Under the pieces are notes generated by a model that saw only the letters and a program-made list of their open reading frames with translations, did no database searches and was not told where the DNA came from. Positions 87-5,120 of a stretch of DNA of 5,120 nt are shown piece by piece. Each line of letters opens with the position of its first letter. Positions within the stretch are counted from its first letter, which is position 1. The position numbers were made by a program, and so were the translations under genes. Source of the stretch: a virus; the UHGV virus genome UHGV-0413291. One strand, written 5' to 3'.

Positions 87-383
87 ATGGAAAAGAGAAG
101 TTATAGGTATGTGGCCAGAGAGCCACAGAGTAGAGTCTCTGATACTCTACCCAATCAGACTGTAGATTTAAAGATCCTTGTCAAGCAGTTAATGGACGGT
201 CAGGCTCTTAATGTTGGATTGTCTTTGTCAGTTGATGGTTCGGATACATTGGATACCCCCGATATATCTAAGCTTGATATTAGGCATATGACAGTTTCAG
301 ATGTGGATAATCTGTTAGCTAAGGTTCAGCCGGTGCAGGTTGATGCGCCAGCTGATAGTGGTACGGCTCCCGTAGCCGATTGA
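87..383 (+). CDS. Hypothetical acidic protein (98 aa), possibly an internal scaffolding-like or accessory virion protein
   Basis: Complete ORF with an in-frame stop upstream at 51-53. Asp/Ser/Thr-rich acidic composition. Same strand and T-rich third-position codon style as the recognisable microvirus genes. Its TGA stop overlaps the ori-like motif. No recognisable family motif. Confidence 0.4.
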   Translation: MEKRSYRYVAREPQSRVSDTLPNQTVDLKILVKQLMDGQALNVGLSLSVDGSDTLDTPDISKLDIRHMTVSDVDNLLAKVQPVQVDAPADSGTAPVAD

Positions 384-684: not shown

Positions 685-1623
685 ATGCTATGTGTTAATC
701 AAATACAAGTCTTGAATCCAAAGACGGGTAAATTTATTAAAGTGCCTTGTGGTACTTGTTACGCTTGTCAAAGCAATAAACGATCGTCTTGGATGTTTCG
801 TAATACAGTCGAACTACAGTACTCTGAATCTGCGTTCTTCTGTACTCTTACGTACAATGATACAGCCTTGTTAGGTCTTCCGTATCACGCTTCTTCTCAA
901 TTGCGTATGCCCTTGAAGTTCCATTATCAGCGCTGGTTTAAGCGCCTGCGTAAGGCGTTAGAACCTGCCAAAGTTCGGTATTTCTTGTGTCATGAGTATG
1001 GCGATGTGTCTCTGAGACCTCATTATCATGTTATACTCTATCTAGATCGGTTTATGTCTCTACAAGAGATGAGGTCACTAATATCTGATACTTGGATTTA
1101 TGGTAATATTCAATGTGATTATGTAACTCCAGCTCGGGTTCACTACCTCACTAAATATGTTACTAAGCAGTTCCGTAATGTCAAGGTTTCTGGTTGCTCA
1201 GTTGATTATATCTTTAATCATGTGTGGGAAAATAGAGCTCTTCAGCATCGTTATATAGTCGAATTCTACCTCAAAAAGTTCTCATTTGTGGTAGCAAGTA
1301 AAGGCTTAGGTTGTCAGCTCCTGCGGGAGCCTGCTTTTATCCGTTGGTTTTGGGATCACCTCGAACCAGGTGAGTCCTATCCTACTTATGCTATCGGAGG
1401 TCACTCTTATACGCTACCGCGTATTTACCTTAAGAAGCTTGTTCCAGATATCTGGCGTGAAGCTATTGCCCCCGATATATCGCCTGAGGCTAAATCAGCC
1501 CGTATATCTGAACTCGCGTCTGACGCTAATTTAACTACTAAACAGTATGTAGAAAATGCGCGCTACATACAAGACCGTATGTCTAAATCTATCCGCGCTA
1601 ATAACAAAAAATCCCCTTTGTAA
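685..1623 (+). CDS. VP4: Microviridae replication initiation protein (VP4/Rep; HUH rolling-circle endonuclease)
   Basis: N-terminal Cys cluster PCGTCYACQ as in gokushovirus VP4. RCR motif 1 FFCTLTY (about nt 835-855). Motif 2 HUH HYHVILY (1021-1041). Motif 3 YLTKYVTK with catalytic Tyr and Lys (1144-1167). Length of 312 aa is typical for VP4. Confidence 0.9.
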   Translation: MLCVNQIQVLNPKTGKFIKVPCGTCYACQSNKRSSWMFRNTVELQYSESAFFCTLTYNDTALLGLPYHASSQLRMPLKFHYQRWFKRLRKALEPAKVRYFLCHEYGDVSLRPHYHVILYLDRFMSLQEMRSLISDTWIYGNIQCDYVTPARVHYLTKYVTKQFRNVKVSGCSVDYIFNHVWENRALQHRYIVEFYLKKFSFVVASKGLGCQLLREPAFIRWFWDHLEPGESYPTYAIGGHSYTLPRIYLKKLVPDIWREAIAPDISPEAKSARISELASDANLTTKQYVENARYIQDRMSKSIRANNKKSPL

Positions 1624-1759: not shown

Positions 1760-2161
1760 ATGAATAATACATGTAAGTATAGGAATAATCCGTTTAATAT
1801 ACGGTATGATGTTTCCAATAATTGGCAAGGTCAAACAGAGCCTAAGAATGGCTTTTGTCAGTTCTCGGAAATGAAGTACGGTGTTCGTGCTGCTTTTATC
1901 CTTGTGTATAATTATCGTAATTTGCACGATGCAAAGACTCCTCGTGATATAATACGGTATTGGGCACCAAAGGAAGATGGTAATGATACTGCTGCTTATA
2001 TATCTTTTGTTGCTCAACTGATTAATGAGGATGAGCCAATAGATACTACTCTCGAGTATGTTGTTCTGCTTTATTCGATGTGGAAAGTTGAACAAGGATG
2101 GGTTCCCACTCTATGGGAATTTGCTCGCTTACTGAATTACTCACTAATAGAAGATTTGTAA
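1760..2161 (+). CDS. Hypothetical protein (133 aa) of unknown function, in the position occupied by small accessory proteins (VP5-like) in gokushovirus-type genomes
   Basis: Complete ORF 6 nt after the previous stop; its own stop lies 1 nt before the VP1 ATG. N-terminal motif NNPFNIR...W.G, then F..F.....GVRAA and YWAP..DGNDT. These feel like a conserved phage family, but I cannot name it with confidence. Confidence 0.6.
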   Translation: MNNTCKYRNNPFNIRYDVSNNWQGQTEPKNGFCQFSEMKYGVRAAFILVYNYRNLHDAKTPRDIIRYWAPKEDGNDTAAYISFVAQLINEDEPIDTTLEYVVLLYSMWKVEQGWVPTLWEFARLLNYSLIEDL

Positions 2162-2162
2162 T

Positions 2163-4082
2163 ATGCCAAATCTAACTAAGTATTCGCTGGATCACGAAGT
2201 AAGATCTAGCTTTGAGATGGGTCAATTAATCCCATTTCTCTGCCAGGAGGTTGTACCTGGTGATAAATATCGTGTACAGTCTAGCACTCTTGTGCGTCTT
2301 CAGCCTATGTTATCCCCGCTGATGCATAGACTTGATTACTTCCAGAGGTACTATTATGTGCCTTATCGTCTGTTGATACCTAATTATGAGCAGATACTAA
2401 CTGATCCTGATAGCGGTCAGATTGTTCCAAGTATGGATAAGTATCTACAGTATAGTGCTAAGACCTTTAAAGATCTTTTCTTGGAGAAACCATTGCTAGA
2501 GTATTTCGGTTTAGCTACTTCTAATGATGATTCTAATCCTGCTAATGCGCTTAAGGATCTTAATGCTACTCCCCTACTCGCTTATTACCTTATATATAAT
2601 CACTACTATATGAGGTCGGATCTTGATGAACGTTATATTGATCAGTTGCGCCCCGAAAATTTTAGTAGTGCTTCTCTGCGCAAATACATTGGTAATGTGA
2701 TGTACGTTAATGAGGGACTTGATTACTTTACTAGCGCACATACCTCTACGCAGTACGGCAATATGGTTCAGTTGGATATGGATGGTAATAATACTATTAC
2801 TGTTCCCGAAATGCGTCTCGCTGAGCGTTTGCAGTCTTTCCGTGAGCGCCTTTTGCGTGTTGGTGGTAAGTATGCTAATTATATTAAGGAGTTTTTCGGT
2901 GTTGAGCCGCTTGACGCTCGTGTACAGATACCTAAGTATCTCGGTGGTGATAGTTACGTTCTTAATGTTTCAGATGTTGACCAGACAGCTCCTTCTGAAC
3001 TTGGTTCAGTTGGTGAAAGTTATGGTAAATCTGTGTCTGTTAATCGTACCGGTCAGATTGAGTATGACGTTTACGAACATGGCTTGATTATTGGTTTGCA
3101 TTTTGTTCGTCCGCGTCCGTCAAATATCGGTGGTTGTCCTAAGATGTTTACTAGACGTACTTACTTTGATTTCTTTAATCCTCATTTTTCGGCTCTTGGA
3201 TATCAAGAAATAGAGGGTCGTGAACTTGATGTTGCACGCTCGAAAGATGAAGCTTTCGGATATGTACCTCGTTATGATGATTATCGTTTTGCTAATGATA
3301 TAGTATCTGGAGACTTTAGACGTTCGCTTGATTATTGGCATCTTTCTAGAGATATAAGTCAGGAGAAGTTATCCGTTGATTTTGTTACTTGTCATCCTGA
3401 TACTCGTATATTTTCTTTTACTGGTGATGCTCCTTTGTATCTTTATAAGTTTAGTGGCTCTGCTACAAATATTCGAACTGTTACAGGTACTATCCTTGAA
3501 CCTTTTAGAACTATTACTGGTTATGTTTGGGCTCCAGATGGTTTTTCTCCGAAAGGTGGCTTGTATAAAGCTCATGTTAAGTTAGGATATGATGTTGATA
3601 AAGATCCGCTTACTTATGATTTGTCTATAGTGGTTGTTGAAAAGATGTCTGATGATCTTTTGGCTCGTCCGTCTATATCTAGTACTAGTTCTAATATTAG
3701 TATAGGAGATTTATCCTTTACTGGTTCATATCTTTCTAGAGTTAAAGATTTATCTACTTCTGGTTCTTTTCTTATAGATTCTTCTTCTGATCTTGTTTTT
3801 CAGCGTGTTGTTGATCGTAAACCTTTAGATGGAGAATATCGTTTATCAGAGATTTCATATCTTACTCGAGATAATTTGGTTTATCCTTTCTTTGTTGATG
3901 TTGCTTCTAGTTCTATATCTGATGTTACTCGTCATACTTTTGCGTTTCCAGGTTGGAACTACGTTCGTACTCTGGCACGTGTTGTAGATAAGCCGGTAGA
4001 TAATCACGTATTGTCAGTTACCTACAATAATGTCGATGTGCTTCGTCCTCTAGCTCGCTATGATGGTAATGTATTAAGATAA
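2163..4082 (+). CDS. VP1: Microviridae major capsid protein (VP1/F-like), 639 aa
   Basis: N-terminus SSFEMGQLIPFLCQEVVPGDKYRV...LSPLMHRLDYFQRYYYVPYRLL aligns with the gokushovirus VP1 / phiX F N-terminal consensus (S.FD....L.PI.C.EVLPGDTF...PL.MDN..LD..FFFVP.RL). Central motif RLAERLQSFRERLLRVGGKYANYIKEFFGVEPLDARVQIPKYLGG matches the conserved R.A.ALQ...ER.AR.GSRY.E.L..HFGV...D.RLQRPEYLGG block. Confidence 0.92.
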   Translation: MPNLTKYSLDHEVRSSFEMGQLIPFLCQEVVPGDKYRVQSSTLVRLQPMLSPLMHRLDYFQRYYYVPYRLLIPNYEQILTDPDSGQIVPSMDKYLQYSAKTFKDLFLEKPLLEYFGLATSNDDSNPANALKDLNATPLLAYYLIYNHYYMRSDLDERYIDQLRPENFSSASLRKYIGNVMYVNEGLDYFTSAHTSTQYGNMVQLDMDGNNTITVPEMRLAERLQSFRERLLRVGGKYANYIKEFFGVEPLDARVQIPKYLGGDSYVLNVSDVDQTAPSELGSVGESYGKSVSVNRTGQIEYDVYEHGLIIGLHFVRPRPSNIGGCPKMFTRRTYFDFFNPHFSALGYQEIEGRELDVARSKDEAFGYVPRYDDYRFANDIVSGDFRRSLDYWHLSRDISQEKLSVDFVTCHPDTRIFSFTGDAPLYLYKFSGSATNIRTVTGTILEPFRTITGYVWAPDGFSPKGGLYKAHVKLGYDVDKDPLTYDLSIVVVEKMSDDLLARPSISSTSSNISIGDLSFTGSYLSRVKDLSTSGSFLIDSSSDLVFQRVVDRKPLDGEYRLSEISYLTRDNLVYPFFVDVASSSISDVTRHTFAFPGWNYVRTLARVVDKPVDNHVLSVTYNNVDVLRPLARYDGNVLR

Positions 4083-4089
4083 TGATGTT

Positions 4090-5052
4090 ATGTCAGTTAT
4101 ACCCGCAATAATTGGAGCTGGTGCATCTCTACTTGGTGGTCTTATTAATAATGAGTATGCCCAATCTAAATCGGATCAGCAATGGGATAGGATGAATTAT
4201 ATGCAGGATAAGATGAACGCTTACAATTCGCCTACTGCTCAGATGGCTCGTTTGCGAGCGGCTGGATTGAATCCTAATCTTGTGTATGCTAATGGCGGTG
4301 CTGTTATACAGTCCGCTGTTGGTAATGCTCCGCAACCGCCTAATTCTGCCCCGATTGATACTCAGGGAGTGTTACAGATGGTACAGACGATTGTCGGCGC
4401 TATGCTTGAAAAGGATAAGATACAAGCTAGTAAGGATATGCAGACCGAGAAGCTTGAATCTGATGCTAAGTTGCAGACCGAGAAGCTTGAATCTGATGCT
4501 AAGTTGCAGACTGAGAAGCTTGAATCTGATTCGAAGTTGCAGGAAGAGCAGATAAAATCTAGAGAAAAGATTGAAGATGCTAACCTTAAAGAGAATACTC
4601 GTCAGTTTAATGAGACTATGAAGCAACGAATTAGTGAATTTAATGCTAGAATTAATCTTGATCGTTTGATAGGTTCTTATCAGATAAAGAAGATCAATTC
4701 TGATGTTGCGGTTAATCGTATTAGAATGAGTATCGAACAGGATCAGTTATCAATGTCTAAGGCTATGCATAAGGTTGAATTAGATTCTGCTTTGGATTCG
4801 CTTAATATGCAGAAACTGCGTTCTTTTATGTCTGTTCCTTACCATTTGGAATCTAAGGACGTTTATCTTTTTATCTCTAATGAGCTCGGTGTCTCTGAGT
4901 TTTCCAAAACTAAGGCCGAAGAGCTTACGAAGATGCATAATGATATAATTGATAGACGTATGAAAGATGCTGATTTGTCAACTATGCCGTTGTCTGTTTA
5001 TTGGGATGCTGTTATGGGTCCCGTTAAAGACTTGGTATCTATTTCGAATTAG
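4090..5052 (+). CDS. VP2: Microviridae DNA pilot / minor capsid protein (VP2/H-like), 320 aa
   Basis: Gly-rich N-terminus IIGAGASLLGGLIN followed by NSPTAQMARLRAAGLNPNLVY, the conserved VP2 signature (NSP..Q..R.K.AGLNP.L.Y). Central K/E-rich predicted coiled coil. Position immediately downstream of VP1. Confidence 0.85.
   Translation: MSVIPAIIGAGASLLGGLINNEYAQSKSDQQWDRMNYMQDKMNAYNSPTAQMARLRAAGLNPNLVYANGGAVIQSAVGNAPQPPNSAPIDTQGVLQMVQTIVGAMLEKDKIQASKDMQTEKLESDAKLQTEKLESDAKLQTEKLESDSKLQEEQIKSREKIEDANLKENTRQFNETMKQRISEFNARINLDRLIGSYQIKKINSDVAVNRIRMSIEQDQLSMSKAMHKVELDSALDSLNMQKLRSFMSVPYHLESKDVYLFISNELGVSEFSKTKAEELTKMHNDIIDRRMKDADLSTMPLSVYWDAVMGPVKDLVSISN
4441..4539 (+). repeat. Three direct tandem copies of a 33-bp unit inside VP2, encoding QTEKLESDAKL x3
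   Basis: Units 4441-4473 and 4474-4506 are 100% identical (cagaccgagaagcttgaatctgatgctaagttg). Unit 4507-4539 differs at 3 nt, giving QTEKLESDSKL. The flanking sequence continues in degenerate 11-residue register. Confidence 0.95.
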
Positions 5053-5088
5053 TTTATTATCTTTGTGCTAGAAACTAAGTTCTTTTGT

Positions 5089-5120
5089 ATGGATAAGATT
5101 TTCATTAGCATTTTATATGT
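5089..5120 (+). CDS. 5' end of a further ORF (MDKIFISILY...) running off the window; possibly the next virion gene, e.g. scaffold VP3
   Basis: ATG 37 nt after the VP2 stop, same strand, open to the window end. Only 10 codons are visible, so the call rests on position alone. Confidence 0.2.
   Translation, partial: MDKIFISILY

Follow-up and report, generated by a model that had tools for sequence, protein, structure and literature searches.

The gene for the DNA pilot protein (VP2, the homologue of protein H of phage phiX174) in the virus genome UHGV-0413291 contains three consecutive 33-nt repeat units, and these very probably lie within a longer array of five 11-residue units (hendecads) in an H-like pilot helix, which varies among related phages by whole units and in which, in this genome, one unit has been replaced. 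The stretch of DNA analysed here, hereafter the window (5,120 nt), represents essentially the whole of a ~5.1-kb microvirus genome. Judged from sequence comparisons, the array behaves as a hypervariable, exchangeable cassette of 4–8 units in a lineage of Porphyromonas microviruses, and the recent event in the window appears to be the overwriting of its first unit, ancestrally QKEQIDSTQKL, by a copy of its second.

An earlier note on this DNA had described three 33-bp units at 4441–4539, two of them identical and the third differing at 3 nt, and this description is exact, both in the sequence itself and by Tandem Repeats Finder (TRF), which places a repeat of period 33 at 4439–4542 (3.2 copies, 95% matches, score 187). 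The third unit departs from the first two at 4512 (ACC>ACT, synonymous for Thr) and at 4531 and 4533 (GCT>TCG, Ala>Ser), and the repeat search also found weaker copies in the same register on either side, at 4406 and 4505–4560. The units are in frame with the open reading frame (ORF) of the pilot protein (Table 1) and make up its residues 118–150. By chance alone, 5 kb of DNA would not be expected to contain a perfect tandem copy of 33 nt (~5120 × 4^-33). It is very improbable that the triple is a mis-resolved repeat and that the true genome holds the ancestral first unit, or one or two copies. De Bruijn assemblers sometimes miscount perfect tandem repeats. However, L006 (ENA ERZ28595558), a contig from a second sample and a separate assembly, matches the 99-nt block at every base and the 132-nt arrangement in full, although its genome background is clearly different, and arrays of like design with varied unit content occur in ~120 homologous proteins. 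The perfectly periodic stretch spans 71 nt and k-mers of at least 39 nt are all unique, so that the copy number can be resolved by ordinary assemblers and 100–150-nt reads, and the assembly and variant-calling hazard of which the earlier note had warned is small.

The earlier note had also proposed a comparison of copy number across relatives. A search of 5.8 billion proteins returned 122 homologues, of which the best 120 entered the analysis. In each of the 120 sequences retaining both anchor residues, K115 and R171, their spacing was an exact multiple of 11 residues, corresponding to 4–8 units: 44 residues in two proteins, 55 in 47 (including that of the window), 66 in 51, 77 in 19 and 88 in one. 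A cruder pair of anchors gave the same result, and no compensating length was found elsewhere in the protein (r = 0.18). The units also share a common design. Across 264 distinct units, taken in the register that starts after K115, position 2 was hydrophobic in 92%, position 9 was S/T/A in 80%, position 6 was Q/R/N/H in 74%, position 10 was N/Q in 54%, position 7 was hydrophobic in 46% and position 3 was Gln in 40%, and positions 1, 4, 8 and 11 were mostly charged. Tandem repeats of 33 or 66 nt in VP2 were detected by TRF only within the window's clade among 99 related loci, and an 11-residue tandem repeat was found only in the nearest outgroup (P0246) among 145 distant representatives. In P0246 (391 aa) the unit at the C-terminal boundary of the array is doubled at residues 198–219 (SANLNENKRQF / NATLNENKRQF), and thus the otherwise conserved NxKENxRQF anchor can itself be copied. 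The most expanded allele was that of P0102 (358 aa), which has eight hendecads at residues ~120–207, including a run of six near-identical GMQEKSIQSQE/GMQEKSIKSQE units.

Unit number has changed at least seven times within clusters of homologues whose flanks are at least 90% identical. For example, P0111 and P0116 have flanks that are 100% identical and differ by one TKSSERNVDVQ unit (six versus seven units); three samples contained the two-copy form and two samples the three-copy form and, as the units are not identical in DNA, the difference is not an assembly collapse. Similarly, P0055 and P0059 (flanks 95–99% identical) differ by one GMQEKSIQSQE unit, P0026 and P0044 (94–100%) by one QTEKLE-type unit, and P0091 and P0094 (97–99%) by a 22-residue double unit. 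Other relatives differ in the content of the array: P0009 is 98% identical to the window's protein in its N-terminal part and 97% in its C-terminal part, versus 29% in the array, further relatives are 76–98% identical to it in the flanks and 22–44% in the array, and P0095 and P0111 carry unrelated arrays on flanks that are 96–98% identical. In DNA, about a quarter of positions differ between the window and L006 in 3980–4348, versus 4 of 771 in 4349–5119, and this sharp mosaic boundary points to a recombination breakpoint at ~4348, at the 5' edge of the conserved PIDTQGVLQMVQTIVGAMLEKDKIQA block just before the array. The 33-nt periodicity of the DNA would allow whole units to be added, deleted or overwritten by short-tract conversion, unequal recombination or slipped-strand mispairing, and changes by multiples of 11 residues would leave the conserved N-terminal block and the conserved C-terminal part in phase along the helix.

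The window's own array can be read against those of its nearest relatives. Most members of its sub-clade carry the units QKEQIDSTQKL / QTEKLESDAKL / QTEKLEADSKL / QEEQIKSREKI. Compared with prophage L007, the window differs by 1 nt in unit 2, by 2 nt in unit 3 and not at all in unit 4, and its unit 1 is a perfect copy of unit 2 where L007 has QKEQIDSTQKL, with ten mismatches to L007 within 4445–4467. The ACT and TCG codons of unit 3 are common to L007, so the duplication that gave rise to units 2 and 3 predates the split between the window and L007; relatives sharing this pair are ~10% divergent. The history would then comprise an older duplication producing units 2 and 3, followed by the recent replacement of the first unit by an exact copy of unit 2. 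The very recent triplication of the earlier note therefore stands for the pair formed by units 1 and 2, but not for the older pair formed by units 2 and 3. Nor does the repeat add length, as had been supposed: the QKEQIDSTQKL unit was replaced and none was inserted, and since the array still has five units, the commonest number in the sub-clade, the length of the helix is unchanged. Another homologue, P0013, likewise keeps five units with other contents (QKEQIDATQKL / QKEQIDSTQKL / QTEKLESDAKL / QTEQIDSTQKI), and five-unit arrays with varied contents look like the outcome of concerted evolution under a length preference.

The close relatives of the window are integrated prophages in Porphyromonas contigs, often as 2–3 head-to-tail copies of the whole ~5.1-kb genome (L007 1550–11420, L008 6690–16560, L010 832–10702 and L112 444–10500), at a site invariably flanked by a gene with a Fimbrillin_C domain and by pyrD. 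The product of the adjoining pyrD is 94% identical to a Porphyromonas uenonis protein and the sole close match in the species-genome collection is a Porphyromonas metagenome-assembled genome, which identifies the relatives' hosts as Porphyromonas; other hosts are congeneric (pyrD 85–94% identical). On this genomic evidence, the window's phage appears to be a temperate microvirus. Phages with 5-, 6- and 7-unit arrays share this one integration site, and prophages L009 and L119, with five and six units respectively, adjoin pyrD genes that share 98.0% DNA identity, so that one host species carries both.

These findings bear on the earlier note's suggestion that the repeat is a net expansion, each unit making a DNA-delivery tube 1.6 nm longer, and that this adapts the phage to the thickness of the host envelope. 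The increment itself is right, at about 1.5–1.65 nm (11 × 1.4–1.5 Å; 170 Å per 121 residues, PMC7354561), the 4–8 units across the family correspond to a range of ~6 nm, the phiX174 tube has sufficient length to cross the cell wall according to PMC7354561, and the working of that tube has been tied to the length of the protein (Roznowski & Fane 2016, cited in PMC5850374). However, the window's count of five units is that of 47 of the 120 homologues and of almost its whole sub-clade, protein flanks that are 100% identical carry either six or seven units, five- and six-unit prophages occupy the same site in one host species, and all identified hosts are congeneric. Such variation within a single host, as judged from pyrD, argues against unit number tracking envelope thickness, and an adaptation of this kind seems improbable, although finer host factors, such as the capsule, remain compatible with the data.

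The 320-residue protein matched phrog_8689 ('pilot protein for DNA ejection', E 9.4e-21) and five further PHROGs of the same annotation, confirming the earlier note's assignment of the repeat to a DNA pilot protein; the gene lies directly after the Phage_F capsid gene. A tblastn search with the protein returned 217 phage records, mostly annotated DNA pilot protein, while no Pfam match was found at E<=0.1. The gene adjoins the capsid gene in a genome that falls in the ~4.5–6.5 kb range of microviruses and encodes a VP4/A-type initiator. Both hallmarks of VP2/H proteins, an N-terminal hydrophobic segment and a long central helix, are predicted in the window's protein. An N-terminal transmembrane domain is a stated hallmark of these proteins (PMC3091885), and residues 2–19 have a mean Kyte-Doolittle hydropathy of ~1.9 over 18 residues (hand calculation), with G9, A10, G11, A12, G16 and G17 nearly invariant across 81 homologues; the N-terminal segment of phiX174 H, FGAIAGGIASALAGGA, is likewise Gly-rich and hydrophobic. 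AlphaFold2, with 81 homologues as input, predicted a single helix at residues 94–247 (predicted local distance difference test, pLDDT, 75–87 over residues 110–290), which bears out the placing of the hendecads in a central helical segment.

The relationship to the phiX174 tube emerged from profile comparisons. The window's protein searched alone against the PDB gave chance-level matches only (E >= 0.11). When the family profile was searched against all PDB sequences, the only significant matches were the top two, 4jpn_A (E 1.8e-4) and 4jpp_A (E 4e-4), both 'Minor spike protein H', with profile positions 115–179 aligned to H ~150–215 at the start of the coiled-coil tube. Alignment with phiX174 H by hhalign gave E 2.8e-5 and a probability of 74% over H149–212. 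In phiX174 H, hendecads begin at residues 151, 162 and 173 and are followed by an 11-residue transition segment and then eleven heptads (PMC7354561 Table 1). As both alignments cover H hendecads 1–3, the repeat is matched to the hendecad section of the H tube, and the array as a whole would correspond to hendecads 1–3 plus the transition segment; the homology, which the earlier note had asserted, is supported by these matches, which do not amount to proof. The hendecad register of the window's protein stops at R171 and is followed by ~79 helical residues, versus 77 heptad residues in phiX174 H.

By analogy with H, about ten copies of the pilot protein would assemble side by side as an alpha-helical tube that carries single-stranded DNA (ssDNA) across the Porphyromonas envelope. 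In 11/3 helix geometry, positions 6, 10 and 3 fall on one face beside position 2, and 18 of 23 lumen positions in the phiX174 H tube are N/Q/R (PMC7354561). The lumen would thus be lined by the residues at positions 6, 10 and 3, with position 2, and often position 7, packed against the adjacent helices and positions 1, 4, 8 and 11 on the outer surface. In the family register, the window's unit KLQTEKLESDA has Lys at position 6 and Asp at position 10, an unusual departure from the family pattern, and the triple would consequently put three consecutive charged rings at putative lumen positions. The change in the window would be one of composition, giving three consecutive units with Lys and Asp, rather than Gln, Asn or Arg, at the two main putative lumen positions.

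Several observations weigh against this interpretation. The tube, its stoichiometry and the assignment of lumen and outward positions are all carried over from phiX174, and tomography of the microvirus Ebor showed no tube spanning the periplasm (PMC11980548), which may put some Microviridae outside the tube model. The protein resembles H to a modest degree (E ~1e-4 to 1e-5, hhalign probability 74%), in a helical region of biased composition. A search of the monomer model against the PDB with Foldseek found nothing (E > 7), an isolated long helix not being a searchable fold. Fourier analysis of hydrophobicity showed no clear peak and did not separate periods of 3.5 and 3.67 (7/2 versus 11/3), in phiX174 H as well as in the window's protein, and AlphaFold2 modelled the eight-unit P0102 with pLDDT 40–48 over the array and a break at 153–164. 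The 264 units are phylogenetically related, and the positional percentages therefore overstate the independent support for the pattern. The 11-residue quantisation could partly be a by-product of slippage in 33-nt-periodic DNA rather than of selection for helix phase. For the event in the window, short-tract conversion and duplication followed by deletion are indistinguishable.

The divergence of the array invites a further explanation, that it is under diversifying selection, either because this prevents co-assembly with the pilot proteins of relatives into defective mixed tubes or because it evades a host factor. The array is far more divergent than its flanks (in P0009, 29% identity versus 98% and 97%) and has been swapped between near-identical backbones, and the phages are temperate, with 2–3 tandem prophage copies; as related phages share both attachment site and host species, encounters between them are likely. 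Particles of phiX174 with two lengths of H are reportedly poorly infectious. Mutations in the pilot protein have also restored infection of resistant Bacteroides fragilis (PMC13064476), but these lie at L84/L90, outside any repeat array. Moreover, relaxed constraint at outward positions combined with a high slippage rate gives the same pattern, and the arrays are too divergent or too short for estimation of the ratio of nonsynonymous to synonymous substitution rates (dN/dS), leaving diversifying selection an unlikely cause. It is possible, if doubtful, that the array is a selected, rapidly switching module in which changes of unit number or cassette alter tube length and lumen chemistry and block co-assembly with co-hosted relatives. 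If true, the smallest known DNA phages would possess a device for incompatibility or host range that is coded in length and sequence, and the natural 4-to-8-unit allelic series would serve to ask whether the microvirus tube has to match the envelope.

An explanation at the level of the DNA, with the repeat acting as iterons, an origin or a packaging signal, or encoding an overlapping gene, is hardly credible beside the variable hendecad array favoured here. Open frames do cross the repeat, at 4280–4555 in the +2 frame (91 aa) and at 4372–4626 on the minus strand (84 aa). However, relatives with the same backbone have unrelated array nucleotides and yet keep the VP2 frame and the 11-residue pattern, and the repeat search of the window found no inverted repeats. 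Both an overlapping gene and a DNA motif were rejected as candidates, as no alternative frame was consistently open across eight relatives and no nucleotide conservation was seen between array types.

Table 1 Features of the window UHGV-0413291, with coordinates on the 5,120-nt stretch (aa, residues of the pilot protein).
Feature	Position	Strand	Remarks
VP4 replication initiator	685-1623	+	REP_ORF2-G2P, E 6e-17
133-aa ORF between replication and capsid genes	1760-2161	+	From ORF list; no Pfam match
VP1 major capsid protein	2163-4082	+	Pfam Phage_F, E 4e-55
DNA pilot protein (VP2/H homologue), 320 aa	4090..5052	+	Directly 3' of capsid gene; PHROG, GenBank and PDB profile matches
N-terminal Gly-rich hydrophobic segment, aa 2-19, SVIPAIIGAGASLLGGLI	4093..4146	+	Transmembrane-like; read from translation
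Near-invariant block, aa 87-115, ...PIDTQGVLQMVQTIVGAMLEKDKIQAxK	4348..4434	+	Starts the long helix and ends at anchor K115; conserved columns
Predicted continuous alpha-helix, aa 94-247, 154 residues	4369..4830	+	AlphaFold2; ~215-230 Å if straight
Hendecad array, aa 116-170, five units (DMQTEKLESDA KLQTEKLESDA KLQTEKLESDS KLQEEQIKSRE KIEDANLKENT)	4435..4599	+	Bounded by invariant K115 and nearly invariant R171
Repeat unit 1, QTEKLESDAKL, CAGACCGAGAAGCTTGAATCTGATGCTAAGTTG	4441-4473	+	Apparent recent copy; slot is QKEQIDSTQKL in close relatives
Repeat unit 2, QTEKLESDAKL, CAGACCGAGAAGCTTGAATCTGATGCTAAGTTG	4474-4506	+	Probable donor; identical to unit 1
Repeat unit 3, QTEKLESDSKL, CAGACTGAGAAGCTTGAATCTGATTCGAAGTTG	4507-4539	+	Older paralogue; 3 nt off units 1 and 2
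Diverged fourth unit, QEEQIKSREKI	4540..4572	+	DNA identical to same-position unit in L006 and L007

The order of genes in the window, including the position of the pilot gene right after the capsid gene, is unchanged in all relatives and prophages. Between 49 and 86% of the window is covered, at 79–86% DNA identity, by five GenBank microviruses from human samples, in which the gene is annotated as DNA pilot protein; two derive from vaginal secretion and three come from China with no source given. The clade is narrow, with 7 representatives at E<=1e-30 among 1.84 billion, versus 8105 at E<=1e-3. Several further features of these genomes were observed. The 133-aa ORF has a 132-aa counterpart in all prophage copies and matches an internal segment of ~80 residues in large phage proteins (phrog_873 'endolysin', E 3e-25, as well as tape-measure and head-protein families). 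The initiator comprises 312 aa from its first ATG in the window, likewise in L114, L119 and L122, and was called as 276 aa in the prophage relatives L007, L111 and L113; the start codon may differ or be miscalled. Two smaller ORFs, one of 98 aa at 87–383 (+) with an acidic, Pro/Ala-rich tail and one of 43–53 aa that lies just 3' of VP2 and spans the ends of the window, keep their positions in all relatives and gave no family match; they may encode scaffolding or DNA-binding proteins. In addition, a related microvirus contig from IMG/VR (L034) contains tandem repeats of 42, 75 and 117 nt 3' of its VP2 gene, at 4765–5028 (TRF scores 144–413).

The H tube of phiX174 is the model for the transfer of DNA by tail-less ssDNA phages across the Gram-negative envelope. 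Within the window's clade, the pilot proteins form a natural series, with differences of whole hendecads (4–8, ~6 nm of helix) or of whole cassettes on near-identical backbones, in phages of a clinically relevant genus of anaerobes, and questions of tube length and lumen chemistry are thereby directly testable. Insertions and deletions respect the local coiled-coil period, with steps of 11 residues among the hendecads and, in a G4-like coliphage, of 14 among the heptads. The array is, in addition, a region that needs care in alignments, copy-number calls, annotation and variant calling.

Among known systems, the closest is H itself (4JPP/4JPN; Sun et al. 2014; PMC7354561), which shares with the window's protein the gene order after the capsid, the Gly-rich hydrophobic N-terminus and the long central helix and which, read in the same register, matches the unit pattern of the family (Ile/Leu at position 2, Gln at positions 6 and 10). 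Overall sequence identity between H and the window's clade is very low, and the repeated unit of the window has Lys and Asp, rather than Gln or Asn, at the main putative lumen positions. The coliphages phiX174, G4-like ID11 and alpha3-like NC29 all have the same fixed three hendecads plus transition, whereas the window's clade has 4–8 units, variable between near-identical phages. Relative to phiX174 H, the ID11 protein (L116) carries a 14-residue (two-heptad) insertion in the heptad section and that of Pectobacterium phage Mimer (L118) an 11-residue insertion in the hendecad section (NETALKATAMN / NETALQSTAMT), suggesting, in a very small sample, that insertions and deletions in coliphage-type H also match the period of the surrounding coiled coil.

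The coiled coil and N-terminal transmembrane segment of VP2/H proteins are already well known (PMC3091885). In the Alpavirinae/BMV proviruses of Bacteroidales, VP2 has both elements and is more H-like than gokushovirus-like, and it has been noted as the most divergent core protein of such microviruses, with no hendecad arrays or copy-number variation described in those papers (PMC3091885, PMC3394797). A literature search on tandem repeats in Microviridae pilot proteins found no paper, the matches to 'hypervariable' concerning the capsid protein, and in the literature searched there was no account of natural hendecad copy-number variation in pilot proteins. The variation reported here is thus apparently an undescribed variant of a known protein design.

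Two further systems offer parallels. The tape measure proteins of tailed phages are said to contain 11-residue tandem units whose number scales with tail length. Like the pilot proteins of the window's clade, they are long and helical, and in-phase gain or loss of units changes the physical length of a DNA-delivery structure; they are unrelated, however, acting as a ruler inside the tail tube rather than as a conduit, and no homology is claimed. Engineered phiX174 mutants with altered H length reportedly tolerate insertions but not deletions, with mixed lengths being harmful. Those mutants likewise differ by whole coiled-coil repeat units in frame, but they are laboratory constructs of a lytic coliphage, whereas the window's clade represents a natural 4–8-unit allelic series in temperate Porphyromonas phages.

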